Counted from the stretch's first letter, positions 15,126 through 55,320 are shown. The stretch: DNA of 64,000 bases from Bacteroidota bacterium (GCA_040755055.1 JBFMBS010000007.1:27444-91443), one strand, 5' to 3'. Numbers and translations are program-made. The notes: generated from the letters alone by a model not told the origin.

Positions 15126-15130
15126 CGGAA

Positions 15131-15781: not shown

Positions 15782-15821
15782 TAATCTATGGTAAAAGATA
15801 AATTTTAAAATAGTATAAATT

Positions 15822-32410: not shown

Positions 32411-32439
32411 TTGCATCTTGAAGAAACTTATTTTATGTT
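32411..32439 (+). promoter_or_regulatory. Candidate sigma-70-type promoter of the LacI-family gene (TTGCAT-17-TATGTT)
   Basis: Hexamers with a 17-nt spacer lie immediately upstream of the palindromic operator. Called from sequence pattern only. Confidence 0.35.
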
Positions 32440-32440
32440 T

Positions 32441-32458
32441 TGCACAAACGTTTGCGCA
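32441..32458 (+). promoter_or_regulatory. LacI/PurR-type palindromic operator (tgCACAAACGTTTGCGca)
   Basis: The core CAAACGTTTG is a perfect 10-bp palindrome, and 16 bp are symmetric with one mismatched pair. It lies 16 nt upstream of the likely regulator start codon. LacI-family operators have a central CG flanked by AA/TT. Confidence 0.6.
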
Positions 32459-32473
32459 AAAGTTGGATTTTCT

Positions 32474-36479: not shown

Positions 36480-36523
36480 AACCAGCTTTAATATCAAGTA
36501 AAAAAAATTTTAAAGGAAATAAA

Positions 36524-39560: not shown

Positions 39561-40325
39561 ATGAACACTCACTCAATGAAAAACAGATTTGTAATAATTC
39601 TATTATTAGCGATGATAAGCTGTTCGAACTCGGATGACGTTACGAAACCCGGAACAACAGAGAAAGCTTTTCAAGCAGAAGTCCGCGATTCGGAAGGATA
39701 TAATTTTCTTTTGTTCATGCCTGAAAATGAATCGCAAAAAGTAGAAGGCAAGTATCCAACAATTTTATTTCTTCATGGAATTGGCGAACGCGGAAACGAT
39801 CTTCAAATTTTGAAAAAGGAAGGGCTGCCAAAAATTTTGGACGGCGACAAAAATTTCCCCTTCATAGTTATTTCTCCGCAATGCCCTTCAACGACCGAAT
39901 GGTATTACACAAACGAAGATAATGTTCGTGCACTCAATAGTATGCTCGATGATGCGGTCAAAAGATTTCCGATCGATACAAACAGAATTTATATCACGGG
40001 TTTAAGTATGGGCGGAATCGGGACGTGGTACTTTGCAATTAAATCGCCACACAGATTTGCGGCAATGGCTCCGATTGCATTCCGCGGCGACGGATGGAGT
40101 CCGTGTCCGGCAAATAAAATTCCGGCATGGGCATTTCACGGTGAGCGCGATAATATTATTCCGGTTTCATCGGCACAAAGTATTGTCAATCAATTTAAAG
40201 AGTGCGGCGGAAAAATTGATTTCACAATTTATCCCGATTTATCTCACGATTGCTGGACACGCACTTATAACAATCCGGAATTGTACACATGGTTTTTAAA
40301 ACATAATAAACAAAATCTCAACTGA
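39561..40325 (+). CDS. Alpha/beta-hydrolase esterase lipoprotein (phospholipase/carboxylesterase-like)
   Basis: Lipobox LLLAMISCS. LFLHGIGERGND. Nucleophile elbow GLSMGG. Later HGERDNIIP and SHD could supply the Asp and His of the triad. Confidence 0.7.
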   Translation: MNTHSMKNRFVIILLLAMISCSNSDDVTKPGTTEKAFQAEVRDSEGYNFLLFMPENESQKVEGKYPTILFLHGIGERGNDLQILKKEGLPKILDGDKNFPFIVISPQCPSTTEWYYTNEDNVRALNSMLDDAVKRFPIDTNRIYITGLSMGGIGTWYFAIKSPHRFAAMAPIAFRGDGWSPCPANKIPAWAFHGERDNIIPVSSAQSIVNQFKECGGKIDFTIYPDLSHDCWTRTYNNPELYTWFLKHNKQNLN

Positions 40326-40351: not shown

Positions 40352-41293
40352 ATGAGCGGTAAAATTGTTGTTGTTGGAAGTTCGAACACGGATTTAACAA
40401 TTAAGATGAACAAACTCCCTAAGCTTGGCGAGACGGTCATCGGAAAGGATTACGTAAAATCACTTGGCGGCAAAGGTGCAAATCAAGCAGTGGCTACCGC
40501 ACGAGCCGGTGCATCGGTAACATTTATTACTAAAATGGGAAACGATGAATTCGGGAACGAAGCATTAAAAAGTTTTGACGGCGAAGGCATCAATACAAAA
40601 AATATTTTGATCGATGAAAAATCCAAATCGGGTCTTGCAATGATTTGGGTTGATAGCGACGGCGAAAATTCGATTGCAGTTGCATCCGGTGCAAATGCTA
40701 ATTTGTCTGCGGCGGAGATAATTGAAAAAAGTGATGAAATAAAAAGTGCTTCCATTTTGCTAACCCAGCTCGAAATACCTTTTGAAACTGTGAAGAGTGC
40801 CATCGACATTGCGCATCAAAATAATGTTAGAGTAATTCTTAATCCGGCGCCGGCTTACGTCTTGCCGGAGGACTTGCTTGCAAAGATAAATATCATCACA
40901 CCGAACATTTATGAATTGGAAACACTAACCGGAGTTAAATCTAACGATGCAAATGATATAAAATATGCGGCGAAGCTGCTTCATTCAAAGGGAATTGAAC
41001 AAGTGATTGTTACTTGCGGAAGCAAAGGATCATATCTCTTCAACAAGAATGAATTTGTTCATCTTCCGCCGTTTAGTGTTGATGCAGTTGATACAACCGC
41101 CGCCGGAGATATTCTAAACGGTGCATTTGCTGCGGCTCTGCTTGAAAACAAAACTATAAAAGAAGCTCTCGTTTTTGCGAGTGCCGCGGCAGCAATTTCG
41201 GTTACACAAATGGGTGCTCAAATTTCTGCACCGCACAAAAATCAGATTCTCGAATTCCTCGCAAAAAGATCGATGGAGGTTTCATTACAATAA
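40352..41293 (+). CDS. rbsK: Ribokinase (PfkB family)
   Basis: VVGSSNTDL, GGKGANQAVA and the C-terminal DTTAAGDILNGAFAAAL (PfkB signature 2, anion hole), with ribokinase-typical length and order. Confidence 0.85.
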   Translation: MSGKIVVVGSSNTDLTIKMNKLPKLGETVIGKDYVKSLGGKGANQAVATARAGASVTFITKMGNDEFGNEALKSFDGEGINTKNILIDEKSKSGLAMIWVDSDGENSIAVASGANANLSAAEIIEKSDEIKSASILLTQLEIPFETVKSAIDIAHQNNVRVILNPAPAYVLPEDLLAKINIITPNIYELETLTGVKSNDANDIKYAAKLLHSKGIEQVIVTCGSKGSYLFNKNEFVHLPPFSVDAVDTTAAGDILNGAFAAALLENKTIKEALVFASAAAAISVTQMGAQISAPHKNQILEFLAKRSMEVSLQ

Positions 41294-41333
41294 ATAAGCA
41301 GTCATCATAAAAAAATATGTAGAGGGAGGTCGT

Positions 41334-43481
41334 ATGAAATTTAAGAAACAGTTTTTGAACATTTCGCTACTTTTTGTTCTTCTTCCTTTTTTCGGATTGA
41401 AGGCACAAGAGGTAAACAACATGACTTTGCTCGGCAACTTCGGCAAAGGCGAAGGGCAATGCAAAGCCGTGTTTGCGCTCGGCACACTGACCTATTACAG
41501 TGTCGGGGAAAAATTTAAGATTGCCGATTTCACCACTCCGGCTCAGCCGGTAAATCTTGGCAGTTTAACTCTCGATGCTGTCATCGAAGATTTAGTCCGC
41601 TCCGGAAATTATGCTTACATGATTGCCGGCAATAAAGTTTATATCGCAAATGTTCAGAACCCAACGAATATTTCTCTTGCCGGAAATTTTTCGTTTACCG
41701 GTTACGGTGAAGGGATCGCAACAAAATCAACTTACGTTTATGTTGCTGCCGGAGACGGCGGCTTGAGAATAATTGATGCGTCAACTCCTTCATCGCCGGT
41801 TGAAATTGCTGCAGTCGATACAATCGGTTATTCTGAAAATGTTTCCGTCGGCGGAAATTACGCATACGTTGCAACCGGTGCAAAAGTAAGAATAATTGAT
41901 ATCTCGAATCCGGCTTCGCCGGTTTACGTTGGCGAAATCGGAAGTCCGGCGGATTATTATCAAAGTGTTACTGTTCGCGGAAGCTACGCATACATTTGCG
42001 ATTACAGTGTTGCACTTCGGATTGTGAACATTTCTAATCCGGCTTCACCCGTTGTTGTCAGCGATTTCCCGACCGGTTCAAGAACCACGCGTGTTCAACT
42101 CGACGGCAATTATGCGTACATTGCCAACGGCGATTCAATAAAAATAGTTGATGTAACTGATCCGGCTTCTCCGAAAAAAGCCGGTGCTCTCGCAATGACT
42201 GAAAGGGCAGTCAGCGTTTGGGTTGGCGTTAATCAATTATTTGTTGCCGATAGAAATTCGGGACTCAAATGTGTTGACATTTCCAATCCGTCATCACCAT
42301 CGTTAACAAGTTCAATCAATGTTGTTCCTTCCGCATCGGGAAGTGCTTACGGAGTTTTTGCTGCCGATAATAAAGCATACGTTGCTTACGGCTCATCCGG
42401 TTTACGAATTGTTGATGTTACAAATGCAAGTTTGCCAAACTTGCTTGGGGAAATTTCTTTGAGCGGCGATTCACGGCAAGTTGCTGTTAAAGGAAACTAT
42501 GCATACGTTGCTGCACGCGACGGCGGTGTTCATGTTGTTGATGTTTCAAATCCTTCATCTCCAGTTGCCGTAAAAAAAATTGAAACACCTCGTGCAAGAG
42601 GAATTACAATCGGCGGAAATTATGTTTACGTTGCTGCAAGTGATTCCGGCATGGCAATTATTGATGTTACCGATCCGGCAAATCCAAATTGGGTAAAAAG
42701 TGCAACGGCAAGTTACGGAGAAGGTGTTGCTGTTTCGGGGAATGTTGCCGCTGTTACTGATTACTCCAACATAAAATTGTACGACATCACAAATCCAACT
42801 GCGCCGGTACTAAAAGGTGAAACCGGTTCATTAACAAGCGGAACAGCTGGAATGACAATCTCCGACAATTATCTTTATGTGCCGGATTTTGATACGCTGA
42901 AAATTTTTGACATCTCAAATCTCGATGCACCGGTAAAAGTATCTTCGGTTTATTGCGGTGCAAGCTGGGACGGCTCTGTTGTTATCGAAGGGAAATATGC
43001 TTACGTAGCCGCAGAAGAATACGGAGTTCGTGTTTTCGATATTACTAATCCACTCGCACCGGTTGAAGCGGCATATTACAAAAGTTCTTCATCTGCACGC
43101 GGATTAACCGTGAGCAGCGGTTTGGTTTTTGTAGCGCAGAAAACAGACGGAATGACAATCTATAAAAATGATTTGGTCACAGATGTTGAAGATGAAACGT
43201 CAACAATTCCTTCTTCGTTCGAATTGATGCAGAATTACCCGAACCCGTTCAACCCGGAAACAACAATTGAGTTCCGAGTTGTGAGTTACGAGTTTGTAAG
43301 TTTAAAAGTCTTTGATATTTTAGGTAGAGAAGTTGCAACACTTGTTAATGAGTACAAATCTCCGGGCAGATATTTTGCAAAACTTTCGGCAGATAAATTG
43401 CATTTGGCAAGTGGAATTTATTTTTACAGATTCCAAGCCGGTTCTTATTCGGATATTAAAAAACTTATCTTGATGAAATAA
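41334..43481 (+). CDS. LVIVD-repeat beta-propeller protein with T9SS sorting domain
   Basis: About 12 repeats of G.YAYVA....GL+I+D+SNP..P. The tail has MQNYPNPFNPETTIEF...GIYFYRFQAG. Confidence 0.75.
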   Translation: MKFKKQFLNISLLFVLLPFFGLKAQEVNNMTLLGNFGKGEGQCKAVFALGTLTYYSVGEKFKIADFTTPAQPVNLGSLTLDAVIEDLVRSGNYAYMIAGNKVYIANVQNPTNISLAGNFSFTGYGEGIATKSTYVYVAAGDGGLRIIDASTPSSPVEIAAVDTIGYSENVSVGGNYAYVATGAKVRIIDISNPASPVYVGEIGSPADYYQSVTVRGSYAYICDYSVALRIVNISNPASPVVVSDFPTGSRTTRVQLDGNYAYIANGDSIKIVDVTDPASPKKAGALAMTERAVSVWVGVNQLFVADRNSGLKCVDISNPSSPSLTSSINVVPSASGSAYGVFAADNKAYVAYGSSGLRIVDVTNASLPNLLGEISLSGDSRQVAVKGNYAYVAARDGGVHVVDVSNPSSPVAVKKIETPRARGITIGGNYVYVAASDSGMAIIDVTDPANPNWVKSATASYGEGVAVSGNVAAVTDYSNIKLYDITNPTAPVLKGETGSLTSGTAGMTISDNYLYVPDFDTLKIFDISNLDAPVKVSSVYCGASWDGSVVIEGKYAYVAAEEYGVRVFDITNPLAPVEAAYYKSSSSARGLTVSSGLVFVAQKTDGMTIYKNDLVTDVEDETSTIPSSFELMQNYPNPFNPETTIEFRVVSYEFVSLKVFDILGREVATLVNEYKSPGRYFAKLSADKLHLASGIYFYRFQAGSYSDIKKLILMK

Positions 43482-43489
43482 TTTAAAGC

Positions 43490-43593
43490 GGTTGTCTCAG
43501 AAGTATATCTTTTTAAAGAATAGCACGCGGATAAAAACTGATTTAAACGGATTAACGCAGATTTTAAATTGAACAATTACTTCTGAGACAACC
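43490..43593. repeat. 16-bp perfect inverted repeat enclosing 72 bp (MITE/REP-like element)
   Basis: ggttgtctcagaagta (43490-43505) and tacttctgagacaacc (43578-43593). It lies between the LVIVD gene and the first ABC permease. Confidence 0.7.
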
Positions 43594-43603
43594 TCGGATA
43601 ATT

Positions 43604-43619
43604 TGACAAACGATTGAGC
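43604..43619 (+). promoter_or_regulatory. Possible second LacI-type operator half-degenerate site (tgaCAAACGATTGagc)
   Basis: Matches the CAAACGTTTG core of 32441-32458 at 9 of 10 positions. It overlaps the TTG start of the first ABC permease. Confidence 0.25.
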
Positions 43620-44504
43620 GAAAAGAAAAAAAATATTTTTGAGCACAACGGGCAGTTGAAACTTTTGCTGCCCGTTTTGATACCCGTGATAATTTTATCG
43701 ATCCTTCCGATACTTCGCGGAATTTATCTCGGTTTTACCGATTACCGTCTCGGCTCGGAAATAAAATTTAATTTCTTCGATAATTATCTCTACATGCTCA
43801 ACGATAGATATTTCTGGAAGTCTTTCCGAATCGGTTTCATCTGGACTTTCGCGGTTACATCCGGACAAATTGTTTTGGGTTTGGGTCTCGCTTTATTGTT
43901 GAATGAAAAACTGAAATTAAATTCAATCACGCGCGTACTAATTTTAGTTCCGTGGGCGATGCCGCCGGTTATCCGCGGAATTTTGTGGCGGCTTATGTAT
44001 GAAATTGACACCGGCGTTTTTAATAATCTTTTTTTGAGCTGGGGGATTATCGGTCAGCCGGTTAATTGGCTCAACAGTTTTGATTACACTGTTCCTTCAA
44101 TAATTATTACCGGAATTTGGGGCGAGATGCCGAAAGCCGCTGTCTTTTTATTGGCGGGACTCAAAACAATTCCAAAAGATTTGTACGAGTCTGCGCATCT
44201 CGACGGCGCGAATGCATGGCAGTCGTTCCGCAACATCACATTGCCGGTGCTCAAACCGATAATTGCGGCGACTGTATCGCTTGCGTTCATGTGGAATTTT
44301 AATGCGTTCGGTTCGATATGGGTTTTAACTCAAGGCGGTCCCGGAGGATTGACACGCTTGCCGATGCTTGCCGCATACGAAGAAGCTTTTAGATACGGCA
44401 ATGTTGGCTACGCCGCGGCAATCGGAAACATAATGGTAATTGCGATTGCAGTTGTTCTCTATTTTTATCTACGGAAACAATTTAAAGAAAGAATTTCTTC
44501 GTAA
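43614..44504 (+). CDS. Carbohydrate ABC transporter permease (CUT1, MalF/UgpA-like)
   Basis: Six TM segments with the EAA-loop region LYESAHLDGANAWQSFRNITLPVLKP. Confidence 0.85.
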   Translation: MSEKKKNIFEHNGQLKLLLPVLIPVIILSILPILRGIYLGFTDYRLGSEIKFNFFDNYLYMLNDRYFWKSFRIGFIWTFAVTSGQIVLGLGLALLLNEKLKLNSITRVLILVPWAMPPVIRGILWRLMYEIDTGVFNNLFLSWGIIGQPVNWLNSFDYTVPSIIITGIWGEMPKAAVFLLAGLKTIPKDLYESAHLDGANAWQSFRNITLPVLKPIIAATVSLAFMWNFNAFGSIWVLTQGGPGGLTRLPMLAAYEEAFRYGNVGYAAAIGNIMVIAIAVVLYFYLRKQFKERISS

Positions 44505-44587
44505 CTGAAGTTACGAAGAATCCAAATTTGGATACTTTTAATTGCCATGACATTTAGAGGTAGTGTGAAAATTATAGATAAACATTT

Positions 44588-44685
44588 GAACTCATCCCCC
44601 GCCCCCTTCTCTTAAAAAGAGAAGGGGTGCTCACGCAAGTTTTTAAAAGTCCCTCTCTTTTTAAGAGAGGATTTAGGGTGAGTTC
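44588..44685. repeat. ~98-bp element with terminal inverted repeats and two internal GC-rich hairpins
   Basis: Ends: gaactcatccc / agggtgagttc. Hairpins: ccccttctctt-aaa-aagagaagggg and cctctctt-ttt-aagagagg. It sits between the two permease genes of one apparent operon. Confidence 0.7.
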
Positions 44686-44771
44686 GCTTTTGATTTTGAA
44701 TTATCACACGGACTTTGAAGCTCGCGCCAATTAAAAACATAATTTGCATAACTTCAGTTAGTAAGGAAAGT

Positions 44772-45608
44772 ATGAACAGCAAAAAGAAAATTATGAAATG
44801 GGTGAAGATATTTTTGTTGATGCTCTACGTTTTGTTTCTAACGTTTCCACTGATATGGGCTTTGTCGTTGTCGTTCAAATCAACTGCAGAAATTTTTTCG
44901 GGCGAAGTAAATCTTATTCCAAAATCTCCAACATTAATTCAGTACGAAACTGTTTTTACCGAGCAGACAATTTTCAACAGCATGTTCAATAGTTTTCAAG
45001 CCGGGGTTATTTCAACAATAATTGTTTTGATAATTTCACTTCCGGCAGCGTATGCAATCACGCGTTACAAATCTGCAATCAACAAATTTTTTATGGGATG
45101 GATTTTAACTTCGCAAGTTTTCCCGGTAATAATCGTGATGATTCCTTTGTACATAATTTTACGAACAATGGGATTGACCGATTCGATATTGGGATTAAGT
45201 TTGGTGTATGTTGTGTGGTCGCTTCCGTTTGTGCTGTGGATGCTTCAAGGATACATCAAAGGAATTCCGGTTGAACTCGAAGAAGCCGCATCGATTGACG
45301 GCGCGACGAGATCGCAAATAATTTTTAAAGTGATAACACCGCTGCTTCTTCCGGCAATCGGTGCTTCGGCATTGTTTACTTTTATTTCTGCATGGAATGA
45401 ATTTTTCTTTGCGCTTGTGCTGATGAAAAGCCAAGAATTGATTACGCTTCCGGTCGATCTCGCGCGGTTCACCGGGATGGAAGGGCAAGCAAGATTGGGT
45501 CCGCTTGCCGCTGCAAGTATAATCTCAACAATTCCATCGCTTGTATTGTTCGGTTTTCTCCAAAAATTTTTCTCGGAAGGTTTGCTTGCCGGGGCGGTAA
45601 AAGAATAG
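44772..45608 (+). CDS. Carbohydrate ABC transporter permease (CUT1, MalG/UgpE-like)
   Basis: EAA loop: LEEAASIDGATRSQIIFKVITPLLLP. The start was set at the ATG preceded by AGGAAAG. The upstream ORF-track extension runs toward the repeat element. Confidence 0.85.
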   Translation: MNSKKKIMKWVKIFLLMLYVLFLTFPLIWALSLSFKSTAEIFSGEVNLIPKSPTLIQYETVFTEQTIFNSMFNSFQAGVISTIIVLIISLPAAYAITRYKSAINKFFMGWILTSQVFPVIIVMIPLYIILRTMGLTDSILGLSLVYVVWSLPFVLWMLQGYIKGIPVELEEAASIDGATRSQIIFKVITPLLLPAIGASALFTFISAWNEFFFALVLMKSQELITLPVDLARFTGMEGQARLGPLAAASIISTIPSLVLFGFLQKFFSEGLLAGAVKE

Positions 45609-46916
45609 ATGAAAAAATTCTTCTCCATATTGAAAAAATTTTTCTTCCCCGCGTTGATGATTTTTGTTTTTTCTTGTTCGCAAAAAAATGAGCACGACAG
45701 AATTCGTTTTGTTTCGCTTGCATGGCAAGAACAATCGCTCGCTGCAAATAAAGAAATTATTCAAGAATGGAACCGCTTGCATCCCGGTAAAGAAGTGGAA
45801 TATGTTCAAGCGAACTGGACTTCAATTTATGATTACTTGATTACATCTTTTGAAACCGGCGACGTGCCCGATGTTTTCCATTACGAAGCTTCGATGATTA
45901 CCGATTTCGGTTTACGCGGAAACTTAACCGACTTGCGGCAGTATATCAGCGACAGTTTGAAAAATGATATTTATCCTTCCGCGTGGGAATCGGTAACACT
46001 CAACGACGGAAGAATTATCGGCGTGCCGTTCTTTTTCGAATCGCTGATTGTTCTTTACAACAAAGATATTTTTGAAAAAAATAATATCGAACTTCCGACG
46101 CATGAAAAACCGTGGACGTGGAATGAACTTAAGAACACGGCAATAAAACTTACAAAAGATTTTGACCACGACGGCAAAACAGATCAATGGGGCGCGGCAA
46201 TCGGTCTTAAAATTTCGGGCAACATAATTTTGAATTTAACTCTCGGTTTCAGCGGAGGATTTTTTTATAAAGTGGGGAATGAATATAAAGTGAGAATCGA
46301 AGAGCCGGAAAAAAAACTTCTCACGACAATTCATGATATGATTTACGAAGACAAAAGCATGTCGCCCTTTGCCGCAAGCCAGAGCGGGTCGGGACTTGTT
46401 CCGCAATTTTACAACGGTAAGTATGCAATGTTAATCGGAATCGGCACTTGGGCACGCCAGCAAATTGTTGAAAATGCCCCGAAGAATTTTCGTTGGGGCG
46501 TGCTCGAACCGATTAAGGAAATAAATCAAGAGCAAGGATCGAACACACAAACGTTGAGTATTCCGAGCGGATCGAAAAGAAAAAAAGATGCTGCTGAGTT
46601 CATCGAATTTTTCCTCGGCAAAAAAAATCTTGCACGACTCGCACTCAGCGATTGGATGAATCCAACAAGAATTTCTTGCCGCACAATGCCGGAATTTCAA
46701 AACGAAAAACTCGGATGGAAAACTACAATCTCGATGATAGATAATTTAAGAATGGGTCCGTGGCTTCAAGTGCCCGGCTTTTCGGAATGGAAGGGAAGAG
46801 TTGCAAACCCGATTTTTCAAGAATACTTTTCCGGGAGAATGAGTTTTGAAGAAATGCGTAATAGTTTGATCGAAGAGAGCGATTATGTTTTGAGTAGGTA
46901 TAAAATAAGAGATTGA
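45609..46916 (+). CDS. ABC transporter extracellular solute-binding lipoprotein (family 1, sugar type)
   Basis: Lipobox MIFVFSCSQ. 435 aa. Its ATG directly abuts the stop of the upstream permease gene. Typical family-1 SBP size and composition. Substrate unknown. Confidence 0.75.
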   Translation: MKKFFSILKKFFFPALMIFVFSCSQKNEHDRIRFVSLAWQEQSLAANKEIIQEWNRLHPGKEVEYVQANWTSIYDYLITSFETGDVPDVFHYEASMITDFGLRGNLTDLRQYISDSLKNDIYPSAWESVTLNDGRIIGVPFFFESLIVLYNKDIFEKNNIELPTHEKPWTWNELKNTAIKLTKDFDHDGKTDQWGAAIGLKISGNIILNLTLGFSGGFFYKVGNEYKVRIEEPEKKLLTTIHDMIYEDKSMSPFAASQSGSGLVPQFYNGKYAMLIGIGTWARQQIVENAPKNFRWGVLEPIKEINQEQGSNTQTLSIPSGSKRKKDAAEFIEFFLGKKNLARLALSDWMNPTRISCRTMPEFQNEKLGWKTTISMIDNLRMGPWLQVPGFSEWKGRVANPIFQEYFSGRMSFEEMRNSLIEESDYVLSRYKIRD

Positions 46917-47049
46917 AATTACGCAAACGACCAAAAGCATAGCCACGAAGTCACGAATAAATATAAAAGCAGAAATAAATATTGAATTTGCACTTAGTGC
47001 CTTGGTGGCAAAAAAATCACTGCTTGCATAACCACAACAAGAGAAAAAA

Positions 47050-48024
47050 ATGAAACACGATTTTATGGATAAAGCAAAAGGATGTCTCGTTGGTCTTGCA
47101 ATCGGCGATGCACTTGGAATTCATACCGAAGGAAAAACTCCCGACGAGATTAAAAAACAATTTGGTTTTGTTTCGGATTTCCTTTCTGAAAATCCGGCTG
47201 GCAGCGACGATACAGAGTTTGCACTTTTCAATGCACTCATTCTTTTAAAGCACGGAAAGAAAATAGATTCGAAAATTATTGCCGGAGAGTGGAGAGAATT
47301 TATTCTTCCGCACGAAGGAGCGTTTAAAGGCGCGGGCTTCAGCCAAATGATGGCAATTGAAAATCTTAGAAAAGGTTTAGAACCGCCGCAGACCGGAATG
47401 CATGCACACAGTTGGAGCGACGGACTTGCAATGAGGGTTGCGCCGTTCGGAATAATTTTTCCCGGGCAGCCGGAAAAAGCATGTGCACTAACTATTGAAG
47501 ACGGTTCGGTTGATCATTCGGGCGAAGGAATTTATTCTGCGATGGCTGTTGTTTCTGCAATTTCCATGGCGATGATTGATGCGTCACTCGAAAAAATTTT
47601 TGATATGGCGCTCAACTCGATGCCGAAAGATTCTTGGAGTTATAGAGCAATCGTAAAAGGAATTGAAATCGGATCGACCGCATTAAACATGGATGATGCG
47701 CTTGTGAAATTGTACAATGAAATACCGAGCAGTTATTATCATTGGGCGGATGTTGCGCCGGAAGCTGTCGGACTAAGTTTCGGATTGATTGCCGCTTCGA
47801 AAGGAAATTTTTCGGATGCGGTTCTCGGCGGAGTTAATATTGGAAGAGACACCGATACGATTGCCGCAATTGCCGGCGCAATCATCGGTGCCAAAATTGG
47901 ATACGGAATGCTTCCCGAAAAGTGGAGCGGAAAAGTTAAAACCGTAAACGGTAAATGCATCGAAATGGTTAAAGATATTGATCTGGTTTCAATAGCAAGC
48001 AAACTTTCTGAGTTGATTGATTAA
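47050..48024 (+). CDS. ADP-ribosylglycohydrolase-family protein (paralog 1, canonical motifs)
   Basis: GCLVGLAIGDALG near the N-terminus, GSDDTEFAL, and the C-terminal GRDTDTIAAIAGAIIGA. These are the metal-binding motifs of the ARH/DraG fold. Confidence 0.8.
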   Translation: MKHDFMDKAKGCLVGLAIGDALGIHTEGKTPDEIKKQFGFVSDFLSENPAGSDDTEFALFNALILLKHGKKIDSKIIAGEWREFILPHEGAFKGAGFSQMMAIENLRKGLEPPQTGMHAHSWSDGLAMRVAPFGIIFPGQPEKACALTIEDGSVDHSGEGIYSAMAVVSAISMAMIDASLEKIFDMALNSMPKDSWSYRAIVKGIEIGSTALNMDDALVKLYNEIPSSYYHWADVAPEAVGLSFGLIAASKGNFSDAVLGGVNIGRDTDTIAAIAGAIIGAKIGYGMLPEKWSGKVKTVNGKCIEMVKDIDLVSIASKLSELID

Positions 48025-48056
48025 TTATTGTTTTGCAAGCTTTTATTTTTTCTGCC

Positions 48057-48212
48057 GCTCCAACGGAGCTAAAATTTTTATGCTAAATGTTATTACCAAG
48101 ATTACGTCCCTACGGGACTTTATAAAAAATAAACTTGAGATTGTGCAAAGCTCCGAAGGAGCGAGATATAGGTAACGAGTAAAAAAGTGAGATCAAAAAC
48201 CCCTTTAGGGGT
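48057..48212. repeat. Cluster of four short GC-stem hairpins in the gap between ARH paralogs 1 and 2
   Basis: gctcc-aac-ggagc (48057), gtccc-tac-gggac (48106), gctcc-gaa-ggagc (48150) and acccc-ttta-ggggt (48199), spaced about 45-50 nt apart. Confidence 0.7.
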
Positions 48213-48272
48213 GATACGAAAATATCATGCACAATAAGAAGAGTAATAAATACGTACCACGGATAAATTGAA

Positions 48273-49325
48273 ATGAATTATCAAAGAACAAAAAATGCTT
48301 TGCTCGGTCTTGCCGCCGGAGACGCATTAAGCTGGCAAGCACTCTATCACAAAAGTTACAACTTCCCGTTCTGGACGCGTCGGTTGAGAAGAGAGATTGA
48401 TGTTGAATCGGAATCAGTTGGAATTATAAAACCCAATCTTCCTTTTTCATTGAACATTCCAACGGAGCCGTTTAAAATTTCTCCGACGGACGACAGCGAG
48501 TGGGCTGCGTTTACTTCACTCGTCCTAATTCATAACAAAGGTGTTTACGATTTTGATTCACACATAAAAGTATGGAAGGAACTTGCTGAAGATAAATCGC
48601 AAATTAAGGGAAGCGTTGCAGTTGTTGCCGCTCTAAATAATTTTAAAAAAAATTTGATGCCCCCGGCAACCGGTAACGACAACCCTCATTATTTCGATGA
48701 CAGCTCGATGGTGCGTGCAATTCCTACCGGTGCTTTGTATGCCGGAAATATTTCTAAAGCTGTTGAGTGTGCCGGATTTGAAGCATCAATCACAAACTCG
48801 CTCGATGGAATTTGGGCGGCGCAATCTATTGCTGCGGCTGTCAGCACAGCTTGTGTTGAAAAAGAAATTGAAAAAATTATTTCCGCGGCACTTCAACCGA
48901 TTCCGGCAAACAGCTGGCTCTATTTAGAAGTAAACGAAGCGCTGAAAATTTCTAAAAAGTATAAAACTGTTTTTAGGGCACTGCCGGTTTTGCACGATGA
49001 AATAATCGATCACACATACAATTACGGTTCATCCGCACCGGATAATCTTGCACTTACACTTGCATTGTTTGTTTTATCGCGCGGAGATATTTCTGTTGGA
49101 ATTACTGCCGCGGCTTCGCTTGCCAAAACTGCTGATTCGGTGCCGGCATTTGTCGGCGCGCTTTGCGGCGCAATGAACAATGAATCTTTCGAAGAAGAAT
49201 GGACAAAAAGTTTTTCGCGGCTGAACGGTATTTGCATCCCTTCTTTGAAAGGAAAAAATTTCAACACGATAGCAGAACAACTAAATCAAATTGCAGAAAC
49301 AATTTTGACAAATAAAAAAATATGA
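48273..49325 (+). CDS. ADP-ribosylglycohydrolase-family protein (paralog 2, degenerate C-terminal metal site)
   Basis: The N-terminal LLGLAAGDALS and SPTDDSEWA are conserved. The C-terminal motif position reads LAKTADSVPAFVGALCGA instead of D-T-D-T. Confidence 0.65.
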   Translation: MNYQRTKNALLGLAAGDALSWQALYHKSYNFPFWTRRLRREIDVESESVGIIKPNLPFSLNIPTEPFKISPTDDSEWAAFTSLVLIHNKGVYDFDSHIKVWKELAEDKSQIKGSVAVVAALNNFKKNLMPPATGNDNPHYFDDSSMVRAIPTGALYAGNISKAVECAGFEASITNSLDGIWAAQSIAAAVSTACVEKEIEKIISAALQPIPANSWLYLEVNEALKISKKYKTVFRALPVLHDEIIDHTYNYGSSAPDNLALTLALFVLSRGDISVGITAAASLAKTADSVPAFVGALCGAMNNESFEEEWTKSFSRLNGICIPSLKGKNFNTIAEQLNQIAETILTNKKI

Positions 49326-50650
49326 AAGTAGATATTACATGGATTCGTCCCGAACAGCTTGTTGAATTCGAACTCGTCCAGCTTGGAGATGAAGGAGTTG
49401 AAACAAGCAATCTAAAAATTGAATGGGAAGCGATTAAGAAAAATTATCCCGATCAAACTCACACCAGAGACGAAGCGGAAAAATTTTTAGTACGATTGGA
49501 AAGCTTTAAGAAGAATATCAGCAATACCGGTATTCAAAATTTTTTAGATGGATTAAAACAGAAAGAAGCAAAACCGGAAATTGATTTTTCATTCGATCAG
49601 CTTTATGATAAAATTCTCGGCGGATGGAATGGTCGTGCCGCCGGATGTTTGCTCGGTAAACCGGTTGAAAAATATTCGCGCGCGGTAATCAAAGAAATTC
49701 TTTCTTCGAATAATTCTTATCCGCTCGATAATTATATAACCGCCGGAGGCATGCCGGAAGAAATTCTAAAAAAATATCCTTGGAATAGACACGAAGGAAA
49801 AGAAAGTCTGCGCGAAAATATTTTGTGTATGACTGAAGACGACGACATGAATTACGCGATGCTCAACCTTCATATTCTTGAAAAGTATGGAAAGGAATTT
49901 ACAACCGGCAATGTTGCAGAAACTTGGCTCGGCATTCTTCCGGTGCTTTCAACATTTACTGCGGAACGCGCCGCATACAACAATCTATTGCAATTGATCG
50001 ATTTGCAAAATGTTCCAATCTATCATAATCCTTACCGCGAATGGATTGGTGCAATGATACGTGCCGATGTTTGGGGCTGGGCTTCGCCGGGCAATCCTTT
50101 GCAAGCGGCACAACTTGCTTTTAAAGATGCATCGCTTACACACACAAGAGACGGCGTGTATGCAGAAATGTTTATCGCAGCAGCTATTGCAATTTCATTT
50201 TCTGTAGATAATGCCGAAGATGTTTTGACTTCGGCGCTCAATTATATTCCCGATGAAAGCAGAACATCACACGCAGTTAAATTCGGAATTGCAACTGCGA
50301 AAAAATTTTCATCGTGGGATTCGGTACTCAACGTTCTTCTCAAAGAATATGAAAAATATTTTTGGGTTCACTCGGTGAACAACATTGCATTGATTGCCGC
50401 CGCGCTCATTTACGGCAAAGGTGATTTTGAAAAATCGATCTGTGCAACAGTGATGGGCGGTTTGGATACCGACAGCAGCGGTGCAACTGTCGGCTCGATT
50501 ATCGGTACAATAAATGGTTTTAACAAACTTCCTTCAAAATGGATAGCAGCTTTAAAAGATAAAATAAGAAGCAGCATGAGAGGATTCGACAATTCAACTT
50601 TTTCAAATCTTGCCAAACGCACTTGCGAAACGGCAGTCAAAAAATTTTAG
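49322..50650 (+). CDS. ADP-ribosylglycohydrolase-family protein (paralog 3, with ~100-aa N-terminal extension)
   Basis: GRAAGCLLGKPVE, MTEDDDMNYA and GGLDTDSSGATVGSIIG. A 4-nt ATGA overlap with paralog 2 suggests translational coupling. Confidence 0.7.
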   Translation: MKVDITWIRPEQLVEFELVQLGDEGVETSNLKIEWEAIKKNYPDQTHTRDEAEKFLVRLESFKKNISNTGIQNFLDGLKQKEAKPEIDFSFDQLYDKILGGWNGRAAGCLLGKPVEKYSRAVIKEILSSNNSYPLDNYITAGGMPEEILKKYPWNRHEGKESLRENILCMTEDDDMNYAMLNLHILEKYGKEFTTGNVAETWLGILPVLSTFTAERAAYNNLLQLIDLQNVPIYHNPYREWIGAMIRADVWGWASPGNPLQAAQLAFKDASLTHTRDGVYAEMFIAAAIAISFSVDNAEDVLTSALNYIPDESRTSHAVKFGIATAKKFSSWDSVLNVLLKEYEKYFWVHSVNNIALIAAALIYGKGDFEKSICATVMGGLDTDSSGATVGSIIGTINGFNKLPSKWIAALKDKIRSSMRGFDNSTFSNLAKRTCETAVKKF

Positions 50651-50662
50651 CAAGGAGAAAAA

Positions 50663-51646
50663 ATGAAATCCAAAATTGATTTAATAAAAAACGAAAGTTT
50701 GTTAATCGATAAAGCATACGGCGCATTGATCGGTCATTCAATCGGCGATTCGTTTGGCGATGCTGCACGCACACCGGAAAAACATTTTATGTACGGCATA
50801 ACAATGGATTTTGACGAAGGCGAAGTGCCGAGCACCGACGACACTGACTTTGCATTGTTGACAGCACAAACACTAATTGAGTGCAGCGGAAAATTAACTA
50901 TAGATGATGTAGTGAAATCGTGGATTAAATATGTCGGACCGAACAAAGAATTGAAGCGCGGCGGTGCAAGTGAGATTGAAGGGATGGCAAATATCAAACG
51001 CGGAATTATGCCGCCCGAATCCGGCAAGTTCAACGCTTACAATATCAGCGACGGCGCGGCGATGAGAATTACACCGATCGGAATTATCAGTGCCGGAGAT
51101 CCCGATAAAGCCGCACATTACGCGGAGATTGAATCTTCATTGAGTCATTGGCGCGACGGCGTTTGGGGCGCGCAATCTGTCGCCGCCGCAATTTCTGTTG
51201 CAATGATCGATGCAACAATTGATGAGATAATCGACACGGCTTTAAAATTTATGCCGGAAGATTCGTGGTTGAGATATAACATGCTCAAAGCAATCGAGAT
51301 AATTAACAATTCCAATTCGTTCGAAGAAGCGTGGATGCCGCTTCATCATCAATTGTGGTCAACATACAAAGCCGCAGTTCCCGAAGCAGTGGTCGAAGCA
51401 TTTGCAGTTTTGATGTTAACGAAAGGTGATTTCAAAAAAGGAATAATCTACGGAGGAAATTTCGGGCGCGATGCAGATACAATCGGTGCGATTGTCGGTG
51501 CAATCAACGGTGCGTTGAGCGGCGCAAAAAATATTCCTGAAATTTGGAAAGAGAAAACACGTTACCCGGCCGGCATTTGTCTTCCGTTCACAAAAGGACT
51601 GGATGTTTTTGATGTTGCAAAAAAACTGGCAATGCTAATTGTATAA
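50663..51646 (+). CDS. ADP-ribosylglycohydrolase-family protein (paralog 4, canonical motifs)
   Basis: GALIGHSIGDSFGD, PSTDDTDFAL and GRDADTIGAIVGAINGA. Confidence 0.8.
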   Translation: MKSKIDLIKNESLLIDKAYGALIGHSIGDSFGDAARTPEKHFMYGITMDFDEGEVPSTDDTDFALLTAQTLIECSGKLTIDDVVKSWIKYVGPNKELKRGGASEIEGMANIKRGIMPPESGKFNAYNISDGAAMRITPIGIISAGDPDKAAHYAEIESSLSHWRDGVWGAQSVAAAISVAMIDATIDEIIDTALKFMPEDSWLRYNMLKAIEIINNSNSFEEAWMPLHHQLWSTYKAAVPEAVVEAFAVLMLTKGDFKKGIIYGGNFGRDADTIGAIVGAINGALSGAKNIPEIWKEKTRYPAGICLPFTKGLDVFDVAKKLAMLIV

Positions 51647-51723
51647 AAAAGTTACGCAACATTCATGTTTGTATAGTTGCAAGGACCTTTAAAGTCTATT
51701 GCATAACGTGAATCTTGTTTTTT

Positions 51724-51845
51724 CCTTTGCGCTCTTAGCGCCTTCTTTGCGGTCTTTGCGTTAAAAGCATTTAACCGCAGAGCGCGCGGAGAAGGCGCTG
51801 TGCCGGGCCCAGCACGGCAGAGTTGCGCAGAGAGTTTTTGCAACA
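51724..51845. repeat. Word-array repeat (CTTTGCG words followed by inverted CGCAGAG words)
   Basis: cctttgcgc, tctttgcgg and tctttgcgt are followed by ccgcagag, ggcagag and gcgcagagag. ORF 51652-51846 is only its translation. Confidence 0.65.
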
Positions 51846-51918
51846 CACTCTTTAGGTCGTGAGATTTCAGTTACATAAAAAATATTACTCATTTGTTGAA
51901 GGCTGATAAAGGATTTCT

Positions 51919-53043
51919 ATGGCGGACGTAAAACTAATTAACATCAACAAAATTTATGAAGGGGATAATCATGTTGTGCATGATGTGAATCTTCATATTC
52001 ATGATAGAGAATTCATTGTGCTCGTAGGTCCTTCCGGCTGCGGAAAATCTACAACACTCAGAATGGTTGCCGGACTCGAAGAAATATCGAGCGGCGAACT
52101 TTTAATTGATGAAAAAAAAGTAAACGATGTTCCGCCGAAGGATCGTGACATTGCAATGGTATTTCAGAATTATGCTCTTTATCCGCACATGACGGTTTAT
52201 GAAAATCTTGCGTTCGGTTTGAAGCTGAGGAAGTTTGATAAAACTGAAATCGAGCGAAGAGTAAAAGATGCAGCAAAGATTCTCGGCATCGAAGAATTGC
52301 TTGGTAGAAAACCAAAGCAGCTTTCCGGCGGACAGCGTCAGCGAGTTGCAGTCGGCAGAGCAATTGTTAGAAAACCAAAATTGTTTTTGTTCGATGAGCC
52401 GCTCAGCAATCTTGATGCTAAATTGCGTGTGCAGATGCGGACGGAAATATCAAAACTTCATCGTGAACTTGGCGCAACAATAATTTACGTAACGCACGAT
52501 CAAGTCGAAGCAATGACGATGGGGGATAAAATTGCAGTGATGAATAAAGGCGTTGTCCAGCAATTTGATTCGCCGCTCAATTTGTATAACTCGCCCGTAA
52601 ATAAATTTGTCGCCGGGTTTCTCGGCAATCCTTCTATGAATTTTATTGAGGGAAAAATAATTAACAACGACGGATTAACTTTTGTTGATGAAAGCAGTAC
52701 GCTTCAAATCAAATTAACAAAAGAGAGTAAAGAGTTATCGAACTACATCGAAGAAAAAATTACGATGGGAATTCGCCCGGAAGATATTTCAGTTTATGAA
52801 TTAAAAAGCCCTTCCCTTCGGGAAGGGTTGGGATGGGCTTTTATAGAAACAACAATCGAAGTAGCAGAAATGCTCGGCAACGAAATTTTTATTTATTTCA
52901 ATATTGGTACAAAACAATTGGTTTCGAGAGTTCCGGTGAACAATCAACTTCATGCCGGAATGAAAATTAAAATGAAGTTCAATCTCGAAAAACTATATTT
53001 CTTTGATAGTAGTACAGATAAAACAATTGGCATTAAAATCTGA
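51919..53043 (+). CDS. Sugar ABC transporter ATP-binding protein (MalK/UgpC/MsmX type)
   Basis: Walker A GPSGCGKST, Q-loop, signature LSGGQRQRVA, Walker B LFLFDEPLS, H-loop VTHDQ, plus the C-terminal regulatory TOBE-like domain. Confidence 0.9.
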   Translation: MADVKLININKIYEGDNHVVHDVNLHIHDREFIVLVGPSGCGKSTTLRMVAGLEEISSGELLIDEKKVNDVPPKDRDIAMVFQNYALYPHMTVYENLAFGLKLRKFDKTEIERRVKDAAKILGIEELLGRKPKQLSGGQRQRVAVGRAIVRKPKLFLFDEPLSNLDAKLRVQMRTEISKLHRELGATIIYVTHDQVEAMTMGDKIAVMNKGVVQQFDSPLNLYNSPVNKFVAGFLGNPSMNFIEGKIINNDGLTFVDESSTLQIKLTKESKELSNYIEEKITMGIRPEDISVYELKSPSLREGLGWAFIETTIEVAEMLGNEIFIYFNIGTKQLVSRVPVNNQLHAGMKIKMKFNLEKLYFFDSSTDKTIGIKI

Positions 53044-53150
53044 GTTGTCCTTTGCGAACTTGGCGTCTCCTTAGCGGTCTCCGCGTGAAATACCTTTCTT
53101 TTTTCACGCAAAGGGCGCAAAGTTTTACGCTAAGACCGCAGAGAAATAAG
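53044..53150. repeat. Word-array repeat of the CTTTGCG/CGCAAAG family with central GCGTGAAA...TTTCACGC hairpin
   Basis: cctttgcg, cttagcgg and ctccgcgtgaaa are followed by tttcacgcaaagg, gcgcaaag, cgctaag and ccgcagag. It starts immediately after the ATPase stop codon. Confidence 0.65.
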
Positions 53151-53192
53151 ATTTGCGTAAGGTGATTGAATAAATAGAGTATAGGAAATATC

Positions 53193-54038
53193 ATGCTTCT
53201 TAAAATTATACTGCTGCTGTTCATGCCGGCATATGTTTTCGGCGGAACAATTGTAAAATCCGAACTCGAATCGAAAGAGTTGAATCGCAAATGGAAATAC
53301 TCGGTTTATTTGCCCGATGATTACAACACCTCCGGCAAAAGATACCCGGTGATTTATCTTTTACACGGTAACGGTGATGATGAAAATGCGTGGTCGCCGA
53401 TTTACAGTGTTGTTGATTCGCTTGTAAAAGCCGGAAAGATCGAACCGCTGATACTTGTTACCCCAACCGGCGAAAGAGGATGGTGGGTGAACTCAACTGA
53501 AAAATTTGAGTCGGCTGTGATTAATGAATTGATTCCCGAAATAGATGCAAAATATTTTACCACTGCATCGCGCAAAGGAAGAATGATTGCCGGCTACTCG
53601 ATGGGAGGTTTCGGTGCGTTAAGATACGGACTTGTTTATTCCGAACTTTTTAGTGCGTGTGCAATTTTTAGTCCGGCACTCTACAACGAAGAACCGCCGG
53701 AAGGTTCGAGCGCGCGGACAAAAGGTATTTTCGGAAATCCGTTCGATATAAAAATTTGGAACGAGCTGAATTATCCCGTCTCATTAAAAAAATATTTGTC
53801 GAAGACCAATGAAGTTTTCTTTTTTATCGGCACCGGTGATGACGATTGGAATCATACCGAAGGAAAAAAATATAACGTAGAGTATCAAACTGTTTTGCTT
53901 TATCAACAACTCCGCAAGCAATTAAACATACCGGCAGAATTAAGAATAATCAACGGCAGTCACTCATGGAAAGTTTGGAAACCGCTCTTCACCGAAGCGA
54001 TACAACTGATGCAAAAATTTGAGAGTGGTGATAAATAA
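53193..54038 (+). CDS. Esterase-family protein (putative esterase / esterase D-like alpha/beta hydrolase)
   Basis: YPVIYLLHGNGDDENAW and nucleophile elbow GYSMGGFGAL. N-terminal signal-like segment. Confidence 0.75.
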   Translation: MLLKIILLLFMPAYVFGGTIVKSELESKELNRKWKYSVYLPDDYNTSGKRYPVIYLLHGNGDDENAWSPIYSVVDSLVKAGKIEPLILVTPTGERGWWVNSTEKFESAVINELIPEIDAKYFTTASRKGRMIAGYSMGGFGALRYGLVYSELFSACAIFSPALYNEEPPEGSSARTKGIFGNPFDIKIWNELNYPVSLKKYLSKTNEVFFFIGTGDDDWNHTEGKKYNVEYQTVLLYQQLRKQLNIPAELRIINGSHSWKVWKPLFTEAIQLMQKFESGDK

Positions 54039-54049: not shown

Positions 54050-54165
54050 TGAAAGCAATGCATGGCTGCATGAAAGCATGATTTTGTTGTTAATCTTTTA
54101 TCCAGTATCAGCATCCAGTTTCAACACTTGTCTCGCATCTTTCGTCTCACGTCTCGCGTTCATTC
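54050..54165. repeat. Composite word-array repeat, copy B
   Basis: tgcatgaaagcatgattttgttgttaatcttttatccagtatca matches copy A at 42 of 44 positions. It is followed by ttgtctcgcatctttcgtctcac, which matches copy C at 22 of 23. Confidence 0.75.
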
Positions 54166-55290: not shown

Positions 55291-55320
55291 TAATTATGCA
55301 AAAATTTTAATAAATGGCAC

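Follow-up and report, generated by a model that had tools for sequence, protein, structure and literature searches.

In a stretch of 64,000 nt from a Bacteroidota bacterium (GCA_040755055.1 JBFMBS010000007.1:27444-91443), hereafter the window, four consecutive genes encoding proteins of the ADP-ribosylglycohydrolase (ARH) family, numbered ARH1 to ARH4 by gene order, lie among the genes of a sugar importer and downstream of a ribokinase gene. The analysis of this region and of its counterparts in other genomes suggests, with a probability of roughly 0.55, that positions 32411-54038 constitute one catabolic locus for an extracellular ribofuranose compound, in which ARH3 and ARH4 would provide a core activity, ARH1 and ARH2 would act as an additional pair, and a citrate-like acid would be the second product. 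A catabolic role is the best-supported reading of the ARH operon and rests on genomic context.

ORF calls placed the genes of the locus in a same-strand run without interruption from 32411 to 54038, all on the plus strand, and recovered every coordinate and the gene order reported for 40352-53043 by an initial annotation made from the sequence alone. Assignments with Pfam and NCBIfam also agreed with that annotation in locating the four ARH genes between the CUT1-type solute-binding lipoprotein and the MalK-type ATPase, with ribokinase upstream, and in placing the block downstream of a LacI regulator gene (32411) and of the receptor genes (a TonB-dependent receptor at 33567, a 669-aa protein and a PorV/PorQ barrel). 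Two esterase genes, at 39561-40325 and 53193-54038, belong to the block and were absent from the original list. The genes of the locus are:

32411..33505, plus strand: LacI-family regulator (Pfam LacI helix-turn-helix and Peripla_BP_1/3)
33567..36479, plus strand: TonB-dependent outer-membrane receptor (Pfam CarboxypepD_reg and Plug; weak SusC/RagA match, 58.9 bits versus a cut-off of 368)
36476..38485, plus strand: 669-aa receptor partner, whose start overlaps the receptor stop by 4 bp (signal-like N-terminus)
38529..39545, plus strand: PorV/PorQ-family outer-membrane beta-barrel (NCBIfam NF033709, 209 bits > 90)
39561..40325, plus strand: Est1, exported lipoprotein esterase (Pfam Abhydrolase_2; lipobox ...LAMISC)
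40352..41293, plus strand: ribokinase RbsK, cytoplasmic (Pfam PfkB; NCBIfam equivalogs NF008353, 360 > 341, and TIGR02152, 355 > 300)
41334..43481, plus strand: LVIVD-repeat beta-propeller, secreted or surface-located (signal peptide; Pfam, ten LVIVD repeats and Por_Secre_tail, the sorting domain of the type IX secretion system, T9SS)
43614..44504, plus strand: ABC permease 1 (PF00528, BPD_transp_1)
44715..45608, plus strand: ABC permease 2 (PF00528, BPD_transp_1)
45609..46916, plus strand: CUT1-type solute-binding lipoprotein (SBP_bac_1 and SBP_bac_8; lipobox ...VFSC)
47050..48024, plus strand: ARH1 (PF03747, E 8.8e-55)
48273..49325, plus strand: ARH2 (PF03747, E 1.9e-32)
49322..50650, plus strand: ARH3 (PF03747, E 5.2e-40, residues 100-405, after an N-terminal extension of about 95 aa)
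50663..51646, plus strand: ARH4 (PF03747, E 4.8e-49)
51919..53043, plus strand: MalK-type ABC ATPase (ABC_tran, OB_MalK and TOBE)
53193..54038, plus strand: Est2, exported esterase (PF00756; signal peptide)

Membership of the ARH family, which had been proposed from motifs, was upheld by profile search. All four ORFs matched PF03747 with E-values between 1e-32 and 1e-55, scored 113-187 bits against a gathering score of 26.2, and covered about 280 of the 287 profile positions. Predicted models of ARH2 (pLDDT 95.8) and ARH3 (pLDDT 92.2) adopted the all-helical ARH fold, and their top Foldseek matches were MJ1187 (PDB 1t5j), DraG and the vertebrate ARH3, with probability 1.00 and target-normalised TM-scores of 0.7-0.8. 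The fold is thus shared with MJ1187, DraG, Tri1 and vertebrate ARH1 and ARH3, and the conserved dimetal-site motifs of these proteins are shared by ARH1 and ARH3 of the window and, for the central and C-terminal ones, by ARH4; identity in the structural alignments was however only 12-19%. A sequence search of solved structures, in which MJ1187 was the closest to ARH1, returned at best distant or generic relatives, none of them for the LVIVD protein, and no ligand clue for ARH1-4, the binding protein or the LVIVD protein. Pairwise identities among ARH1-4 amounted to 26-37% by alignment, ARH4 being the closest paralog of ARH1 (36%), and the four are therefore old paralogs rather than recent duplicates. 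None of them reached the DraG or Tri1 equivalog cut-offs, the best scores being 52.5 bits versus 337 for DraG and 58.6 versus 490 for Tri1, and ARH2 did not match these NCBIfam models at all.

Genomes of other species were surveyed, one per species, using an alignment of ARH3-type proteins as query; 595 of 599 candidate stretches were confirmed, corresponding to at least 595 species genomes, and the ORFs of 80 retained loci (cited below by L numbers) were labelled with the window's own proteins. This neighbourhood survey, a check suggested by the initial annotation for clusters of ARH, ABC-transporter and ribokinase genes, revealed that the cassette recurs across phyla. The order permease-permease-binding protein-ARH1-ARH2-ARH3-ARH4 was found in Ignavibacteriota/Melioribacteraceae, Calditrichia, KSB1, Neomarinimicrobiota, metagenome-assembled genomes (MAGs) of Chitinophagales, and Bacillota, with variants in Deinococcota, Streptomyces and Brevibacillus. 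The cassette of Halothermothrix orenii H168 (CP001098, about 487-508 kb) has the order LacI-ribokinase-permease-permease-binding protein-ARH(329)-ARH(347)-ARH(443)-ARH(326). Each paralog forms its own orthogroup, whose members score 2-5 times higher against their own type than against the other types; ARH1 of H. orenii, for instance, scored 371 bits to ARH1 of the window and at most 179 to the other three. In at least five phyla the ARH genes are accompanied by genes for a LacI regulator, a CUT1 importer and a true ribokinase, and in other genomes the genes of the cassette overlap by 4 bp or are separated by gaps of less than 40 bp.

Inspection of the motifs separated ARH2 from the other three proteins. 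The motif positions considered were a Glu following an N-terminal G-D-x-x-G motif, a central [ST]-D-D and a C-terminal D-x-D-[TS], which we take to be dimetal ligands from the structures of human ARH3 and DraG. The central and C-terminal motifs are invariant in the orthogroups of ARH1, ARH3, ARH4 and of a fifth type, ARH5, described below, and the Glu is invariant in ARH1, ARH3 and ARH5. Invariant motifs of the ARH1 orthogroup are GDALG...E, SDDTE and GRDTDT, and those of the ARH4 orthogroup are TDDT and GRDxDT; the N motif of ARH4 is G-D-S-F-G-D, and DD and DxDT are kept. The central motif of ARH3 is E-D-D-D-M. The claim of the initial annotation that three of the proteins keep the C-terminal motif was correct, these being ARH1, ARH3 and ARH4, with T-A-D-S at this position in ARH2. 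Its claim of an N-terminal motif in all four stands only in the loose sense of a motif-like sequence, as ARH3 reads G-C-L-L-G-K and ARH2 reads G-D-A-L-S. By their motifs, ARH1, ARH3 and ARH4 are predicted to be catalytically complete hydrolases of the ARH fold.

In 48 diverse orthologs of ARH2, by contrast, the Glu of the N motif was missing in every case, with a conserved W-x-x-x-x-H-R in its place, and the first Asp of the C motif was also missing in 48/48, the consensus being K-T-A-D-S; most ARH2 lineages keep TDD[TS]EW and an Asp or Glu in the C motif. The predicted model of ARH2 is nevertheless a confident ARH domain with MJ1187/1t5j as its best PDB match, so that the protein probably represents an ARH fold with an incomplete dimetal site, a non-catalytic partner of ARH1. 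Among the non-redundant loci counted, ARH1 was never seen without ARH2, and three apparent cases of ARH2 without ARH1 were contig ends. Furthermore, an exhaustive profile-free search with ARH2 uncovered natural ARH1-ARH2 fusions in four representative protein clusters (675-776 aa), in which the N-terminal halves scored 241-263 bits to ARH1 and the C-terminal halves 153-201 bits to ARH2, the order matching that of the genes. Two of the fusions have an ARH2 half in which the D-D pair and all acids of the C motif are missing as well. Because residues of the ARH2 site are missing, ARH1 does not occur without ARH2 and the two are naturally fused, they probably form a heteromer with one active site.

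The remaining ARH proteins appear to make up the core of the system. ARH3 carries a conserved N-terminal extension of about 95 residues, with E17 and Q20 invariant, which is predicted to fold as four helices packed on the ARH core and has no counterpart in the MJ1187, DraG and ARH structures; the best match of the model was MJ1187. Further invariant residues of ARH3 are E116, D173-D175, D382 and D384. An ARH3 copy identical to that of the window was present on a record from a 'Bacteroidota bacterium' MAG, and the closest named relative among the matches listed, at 86% identity, came from a Melioribacter roseus MAG. ARH5, of about 380 aa, stands in for ARH4 in Trueperaceae, Streptomyces and Brevibacillus. 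Meiothermus, Armatimonadota and several actinobacteria possess ARH5 and ARH3 only, and one Neomarinimicrobiota locus ARH3 and ARH4 only. These reduced sets indicate that the core consists of ARH3 with ARH4 or ARH5, and that ARH1 and ARH2 are an add-on pair. The set of the window probably comprises three enzymes and one non-catalytic partner, and the picture of four enzymes acting on different linkages, put forward in the initial annotation, is unlikely given the incomplete site of ARH2, its inseparability from ARH1, the fusions and the smaller sets conserved elsewhere; it should be replaced by that of a core pair plus an active/pseudoenzyme pair.

To characterize the genes accompanying the ARH blocks, their unlabelled neighbours were clustered and scanned with Pfam and NCBIfam. 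A citrate-cleavage module directly follows the ARH block in 20 of 35 non-redundant multi-ARH loci, several of the other 15 being truncated contigs, and in none of 46 loci that hold only a single, distant ARH3-type gene. The module occurs in five non-homologous forms. A fusion of an acyl carrier protein (ACP, CitD) with CitE, accompanied by CitF, is found in Ignavibacteriaceae, Chitinophagales, Neomarinimicrobiota and one Bacteroidota MAG (L085), where it starts 13 bp after ARH4 (13-22 bp over L085 and L001). H. orenii carries a full citCDEFXG set after a gap of 22 bp, with CitF (685 > 501), CitC (303 > 262) and CitX passing their cut-offs. A CoA-transferase III with a CitE-like lyase is present in Trueperaceae, Meiothermus, Timonella, other actinobacteria and Streptomyces. 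In Armatimonadota (L023) and in L027 the CoA-transferase III is instead paired with a short citrate-synthase-like protein, which in L023 passes the 'citryl-CoA lyase' subfamily cut-off (244 > 212). Brevibacillus has a CitE-like lyase with an ADP-forming acyl-CoA synthetase, and Calditrichia a SucC-like protein with a weak match to the citrate-binding domain of ATP-citrate lyase. The most complete locus, L086, runs permease-permease-binding protein-[ARH1-ARH2 fusion]-ARH5-ARH3-ribokinase-FGE-like protein-CoA-transferase III-CitE-like lyase as one tight operon with overlapping stops and starts.

Chance adjacency is unlikely because unrelated proteins supply one chemical step in different phyla, and the lyase module that recurs in orthologous operons suggests that the second product is citrate or a closely related acid such as homocitrate. 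By analogy with these operons, the pathway probably yields ribose and a citrate-like acid. The initial annotation had concluded that the substrate could not be deduced, which was too pessimistic, as the citrate-lyase or citryl-CoA-lyase module of the orthologous operons suggests the nature of one product.

Other genes also recur beside the ARH block. A protein of the FGE-sulfatase/EgtB-like family (PF03781) lies inside the ARH-ribokinase-lyase operon in L011, L020, L026, L029, L039, L041 and L086 (for example L086:8527-9915), often behind an N-terminal region of about 480 aa that matched no family; its carriers are Deinococcota, Actinobacteria and Neomarinimicrobiota, and its role is not explained by a scheme of ribose plus citrate. 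In loci of the FCB group (Bacteroidota and relatives) an aldo-keto reductase gene separates ARH4 from ACP-CitE (L007, L010, L019 and L021; for example L007:2928-3986). An AtuA-like protein follows ARH4 in two Bacillota MAGs (L017/L018), and a GH127-like gene follows CitF at L085:16364-19021.

The CUT1 importer is complete, with an SBP_bac_1 protein, two BPD_transp_1 permeases and a MalK-type ATPase with OB/TOBE domain, and the nearest solved relatives of its binding protein, distant as they are, all bind oligosaccharides or glycosides. The TIGR02152 ribokinase cut-off was passed not only by the kinase of the window but also by those of three other loci. In H. orenii, as in deinococcotal and actinobacterial loci, the orthologous cassette begins with a LacI gene. 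Homologs of the TonB-dependent receptor adjoin the ARH block in L016 and L028, and these two loci also contain homologs of the 669-aa protein, for which no Pfam, NCBIfam or PADLOC match was obtained; the possibility that the latter is a paralog of a 669-aa ORF at 3692-5701 was discarded, since that ORF encodes an S15 peptidase. Est1 is recurrent in FCB-group loci, Est2 occupies an equivalent position in L003, L005, L008 and L015, and the LVIVD protein is present in 10/35 multi-ARH loci.

Export signals were found in the binding protein and Est1 (lipobox) and in Est2, the LVIVD protein and components of the receptor (signal peptide), and none was found in the N-termini of ARH1-4 and the ribokinase. 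These signals place ester cleavage and any action of the propeller outside the cytoplasm, and the ARH reactions and phosphorylation of ribose inside. FCB-group loci contain beta-lactamase-like serine hydrolases and propellers of the NHL/SGL or LVIVD type, which together with the exported esterases suggest that the extracellular form of the substrate is esterified or polymeric.

A flow of substrate through the locus can be proposed from the localisation signals and the family assignments. Outside the cytoplasm, the T9SS-secreted LVIVD propeller and the two exported esterases would handle an esterified or polymeric form, which would cross the outer membrane through the TonB-dependent receptor set. 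The CUT1 lipoprotein would bind the compound, and the two permeases and the MalK ATPase would pump it inward. In the cytoplasm, the ARH-fold proteins would hydrolyse ribosyl (C1) linkages, with ARH3 and ARH4 as the core pair and ARH1, probably in a heteromer with ARH2, handling an additional linkage, and ribokinase would convert the freed ribose to ribose-5-phosphate. The LacI protein would repress the locus in the absence of an inducer. The substrate class would accordingly consist of ribofuranosyl glycosides of a citrate-like acid.

A more specific version of this scheme can be entertained as a possibility, at a good deal less than even odds: that the ARH-fold proteins, including the active/pseudoenzyme heteromer, are cytoplasmic alpha-ribofuranosidases acting on 'ribocitrin-like' oligo-ribosyl glycosides of citrate or homocitrate, the ribose passing to ribokinase and the acid to the citrate-lyase-type module. 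Ribocitrin is a dextransucrase inhibitor from a Streptomyces, described by Okami, Takashio and Umezawa in the early 1980s, and reportedly consists of several alpha-D-ribofuranosyl residues linked glycosidically to citric or homocitric acid. A compound of this kind would need hydrolases for Rib-Rib and Rib-O-acid bonds, a ribokinase and a citrate-type lyase; the ARH fold acts on comparable bonds in poly-ADP-ribose. Loci with two and four ARHs would then reflect shorter and longer or branched ribosyl chains, respectively. Ribocitrin as the specific substrate has a low probability and serves as a lead only. Two other candidates were rejected: a guanidino aglycone, suggested by an arginase-family gene in L023 that adjoins the cassette only once, and a substrate of the bacillithiol type (GlcN-malate), with a similar phyletic pattern, given that all loci tested have a true ribokinase as their kinase.

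None of the open-access papers found contains a description of the cassette or pathway. A role of ARH-fold hydrolases in ribose scavenging has already been proposed (bioRxiv 10.1101/574913), in a paper that does not contain this cassette. Ribokinase-containing ribose-scavenging loci, which the initial annotation mentioned for Bacteroides, have been published from Bacteroidetes, with ARH enzymes, as rus polysaccharide utilization loci, which are centred on ribokinases and combine an outer-membrane receptor, a regulator (LacI being the second commonest) and variable hydrolases (Glowacki et al., bioRxiv 10.1101/574913). These hydrolases explicitly include ADP-ribosylglycohydrolases and esterases, and are proposed to free ribose from unknown ribose-containing nutrients (bioRxiv 10.1101/574913). 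The locus of the window resembles them in its ribokinase (at equivalog level), receptor, LacI regulator, ARHs and esterases. It differs in using a CUT1 ABC importer where rus loci use the RusT permease, and in its receptor genes, which are of the SusC/SusD type in rus loci, the receptor of the window scoring 58.9 bits against 368 for SusC/RagA and its partner lacking a SusD match. Moreover, the cassette has a fixed set of two or four ARH paralogs, is also present in Bacillota, Deinococcota and Actinobacteria, and is linked to citrate-cleavage genes. Genes of the citrate lyase (CitDEF) and citryl-CoA lyase-CoA-transferase routes follow the ARH block in orthologous operons but not in the window.

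In Streptomyces coelicolor, SCO2028-SCO2031 are four uncharacterized DraG/ARH homologues, treated in the literature as candidate protein or nucleic-acid de-ADP-ribosylases (PMC9411070, PMC5087735), of which SCO2028 and SCO2030 were inactive on uracil-linked ADP-ribose, U-ADPr (PMC13036486). Two other Streptomyces loci, L066 (S. lushanensis) and L078, contain ARH1, ARH2, ARH5 and ARH3 followed by ribokinase, and L066 adds a CoA-transferase III and a CitE-like lyase; they differ from the window in having ARH5 instead of ARH4 and no adjacent importer. By analogy with these loci, we infer that SCO2028-2031 are this cassette. The yegTUV operon of Escherichia coli, with a transporter, the ARH-family protein YegU and the PfkB kinase YegV under control of GgaR/YegW, has an unclear function (PMC10819704). 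Its gene content likens it to the present locus, as a single regulated operon for import, removal of a ribosyl-type group and phosphorylation, but it has a single ARH, a nucleoside-type major facilitator superfamily transporter and a GntR regulator.

Several alternatives were weighed against the reading as a catabolic locus for ribofuranosyl compounds. That it scavenges ribosides derived from NAD or nucleotides, such as ADP-ribose, O-acetyl-ADP-ribose, nicotinamide riboside, modified nucleosides or RNA products, with the citrate module as an unrelated neighbour, is unlikely, though it has points in its favour. The ARH fold is known for hydrolysis of ADP-ribosyl bonds and of O-acetyl-ADP-ribose, in agreement with the structure matches; the esterases could deacetylate such substrates, a ribokinase is present, and the window itself lacks the citrate module. 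Rus loci with ARH genes and esterases offer a precedent (bioRxiv 10.1101/574913). Family assignments, however, revealed no Nudix protein, phosphatase, nucleotidase, nucleoside hydrolase or nucleoside phosphorylase in the locus. A CUT1 transporter of the oligosaccharide type would be unusual for nucleosides or nucleotides, and the five forms of the co-operonic citrate module (20/35 loci versus 0/46 controls) would be left aside. The inactivity of SCO2028 and SCO2030 on uracil-linked ADP-ribose (PMC13036486), a single substrate, also speaks against it. Still less likely is the model of the initial annotation, in which four independently active glycosidases each cleave a different ribosyl linkage of one complex substrate. 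It would fit the four distinct, anciently diverged orthogroups in fixed order, and a single-metal mechanism is conceivable for the majority of ARH2 lineages, which keep TDD[TS]EW and a C-motif Asp/Glu, but two dimetal residues are missing from every ARH2 ortholog examined, and some ARH2 lineages have no motif acid left. ARH1 and ARH2 are moreover always inherited as a pair, with fusions in four clusters, and many functional-looking operons have only two ARHs.

A role of the ARHs as regulatory de-ADP-ribosylases like DraG, or as antitoxin or immunity proteins like Tri1, seems very improbable. The Pfam family is common to all of them, weak NCBIfam matches to both models were obtained, and the S. 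coelicolor homologs are listed as putative ADP-ribosyl protein hydrolases (PMC5087735, PMC9411070). On the other hand, these matches reached at most 59 bits against equivalog cut-offs of 337 and 490, and neither an ADP-ribosyltransferase gene nor a toxin gene was recognised by family assignment in the 16-gene locus or its flanks. PADLOC defence models matched none of ARH1-4, the LVIVD protein, the 669-aa protein or a Mut7-C protein beyond the locus. Two to four paralogs per operon would be atypical for a switch, and in several phyla the ARH genes share operons with genes for importer, ribokinase and lyase. The catabolic rather than signalling or defensive use of the ARH fold proposed in the initial annotation is therefore supported by context: linkage to importer and ribokinase, absence of a partner transferase, absence of a defence match and scores below the DraG and Tri1 cut-offs make it the better fit. 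Least probable of all is that the ARHs service citrate lyase or malonate decarboxylase, cleaving the ribosyl-ribose bond of the 2'-(5''-phosphoribosyl)-3'-dephospho-CoA group or its precursor for turnover or recycling. This group does hold a ribose-ribose glycosidic bond like that of poly-ADP-ribose, and the ARH block has citCDEFXG as its immediate neighbour in H. orenii and ACP-CitE with CitF in loci of the FCB group; half of the modules found with ARH blocks, though, are of the CoA-transferase III type and lack ACP, CitG and CitX, and the importer, LacI regulator, ribokinase, exported esterases and receptor would be left unexplained.

Several observations weigh against the proposed catabolic locus with ribose and a citrate-like acid as products. 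To our knowledge, no ARH of this clade has a known substrate, and most CUT1 binding proteins carry neutral sugars. No homolog of CitE, CitF, CoA-transferase III, aldo-keto reductase or the FGE-like protein was found in the 64 kb of the window, and in the nearest relatives (L003, L005, L008 and L015) the locus is likewise without the module. The citrate argument therefore applies to the window only insofar as its ARH, transporter and kinase genes are orthologous to those of the other loci. In none of the loci tested, H. orenii among them (363 < 443), did a CitE-like protein reach the citE equivalog cut-off, and CitF passed its cut-off only in H. orenii, remaining below it in L019 and L085. Given these scores, and the presence of a dedicated lyase in aerobes able to burn citrate in the tricarboxylic acid cycle, there is room for an analogue, for example homocitrate or citramalate, and the acid need not be citrate. 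The sampled Streptomyces loci have no adjacent importer, and for them turnover of an internal metabolite fits as well as scavenging. Within the window, hairpin-rich spacers of 132-272 bp interrupt the operon (43482-43613, 44505-44714, 48025-48272, 51647-51918 and 53044-53192) at places where orthologous loci have overlaps or close spacing, and co-transcription is thus not assured. Nothing convincing emerged as a shared palindromic operator of the LacI type in the intergenic regions.

The spacers contain a perfect 16-nt inverted repeat (43490-43505/43578-43593), 18-nt arms at 44608-44668 and 30-nt arms at 51737-51799, and look like insertions of the REP (repetitive extragenic palindromic) or MITE (miniature inverted-repeat transposable element) type. 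Promoter and terminator scans gave no difference from shuffled sequence, and an Rfam scan of the window returned no match.

ARH-family genes number in the thousands in bacterial genomes. Their products are annotated, and in some cases have been studied, as enzymes that reverse ADP-ribosylation, and hardly any has a known substrate. The present locus offers a testable alternative, a cross-phylum operon using the ARH fold for nutrition, with experimental handles in its ribokinase and screenable binding protein, in the predicted active/pseudoenzyme ARH pair and in the linked citrate-type lyase, which limits the possible chemistry of the substrate. If the more specific scheme with ribocitrin-like substrates is true, many of the 'orphan' ARH homologs of bacteria, SCO2028-2031 included, would be nutrient glycosidases rather than erasers of ADP-ribosylation, and ribose-citrate metabolites or polymers would form an unrecognised, environmentally common class. 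The nutritional alternative would also explain the four tandem 'DraG homologues' of S. coelicolor. Ribose-containing compounds relevant to carbon turnover in sediments, soils and hot springs could thereby be uncovered.

More distant ARH genes were also noted in the surveyed genomes. Loci L030-L084 (Bathyarchaeia, Anaerolineae, Planctomycetota and others) include single ARH3-type proteins of 36-43% identity, with different neighbours (Gfo/Idh/MocA oxidoreductases, ROK kinases and zinc alcohol dehydrogenases) and no lyase module; these proteins probably have a different substrate. Two Meiothermus loci contain long ORFs (about 710-760 aa; L020:16236-18518 and L025:13422-15560) that match the ARH domain weakly, a few kb downstream of the ARH5-ARH3-CitE-CoA-transferase block.

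In the window, a direct repeat of about 65 bp brackets the 21.8-kb interval from the LacI gene to the last esterase gene (32276-32340 and 54058-54120), with a looser third copy at about 55100-55340. The exact 22-mer GCATGAAAGCATGATTTTGTTG occurs in the window only at 32286 and 54068, against 0.01 expected, and G+C content is 0.40-0.43 in the locus versus 0.35-0.39 in the left flank. The repeat could belong to an intergenic repeat family or mark the boundary of an acquired island. Directly after the locus, between two of the repeat copies, lies a gene for a Mut7-C RNase with an N-terminal Ub-Mut7C ubiquitin-like domain (54248-55000), beyond which ilv/leu genes are found. On the minus strand, at 3692-20619, a cluster of T9SS-secreted enzymes adjoins genes for a Reg_prop/Y_Y_Y histidine kinase and a LuxR-type response regulator. 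It encodes an S15 X-Pro dipeptidyl peptidase, a purple-acid-phosphatase-like metallophosphoesterase, a glycerophosphodiester phosphodiesterase fused to Laminin_G_3 domains and another Laminin_G_3 protein, and may represent a second, unrelated scavenging locus for phosphodiester-linked material.

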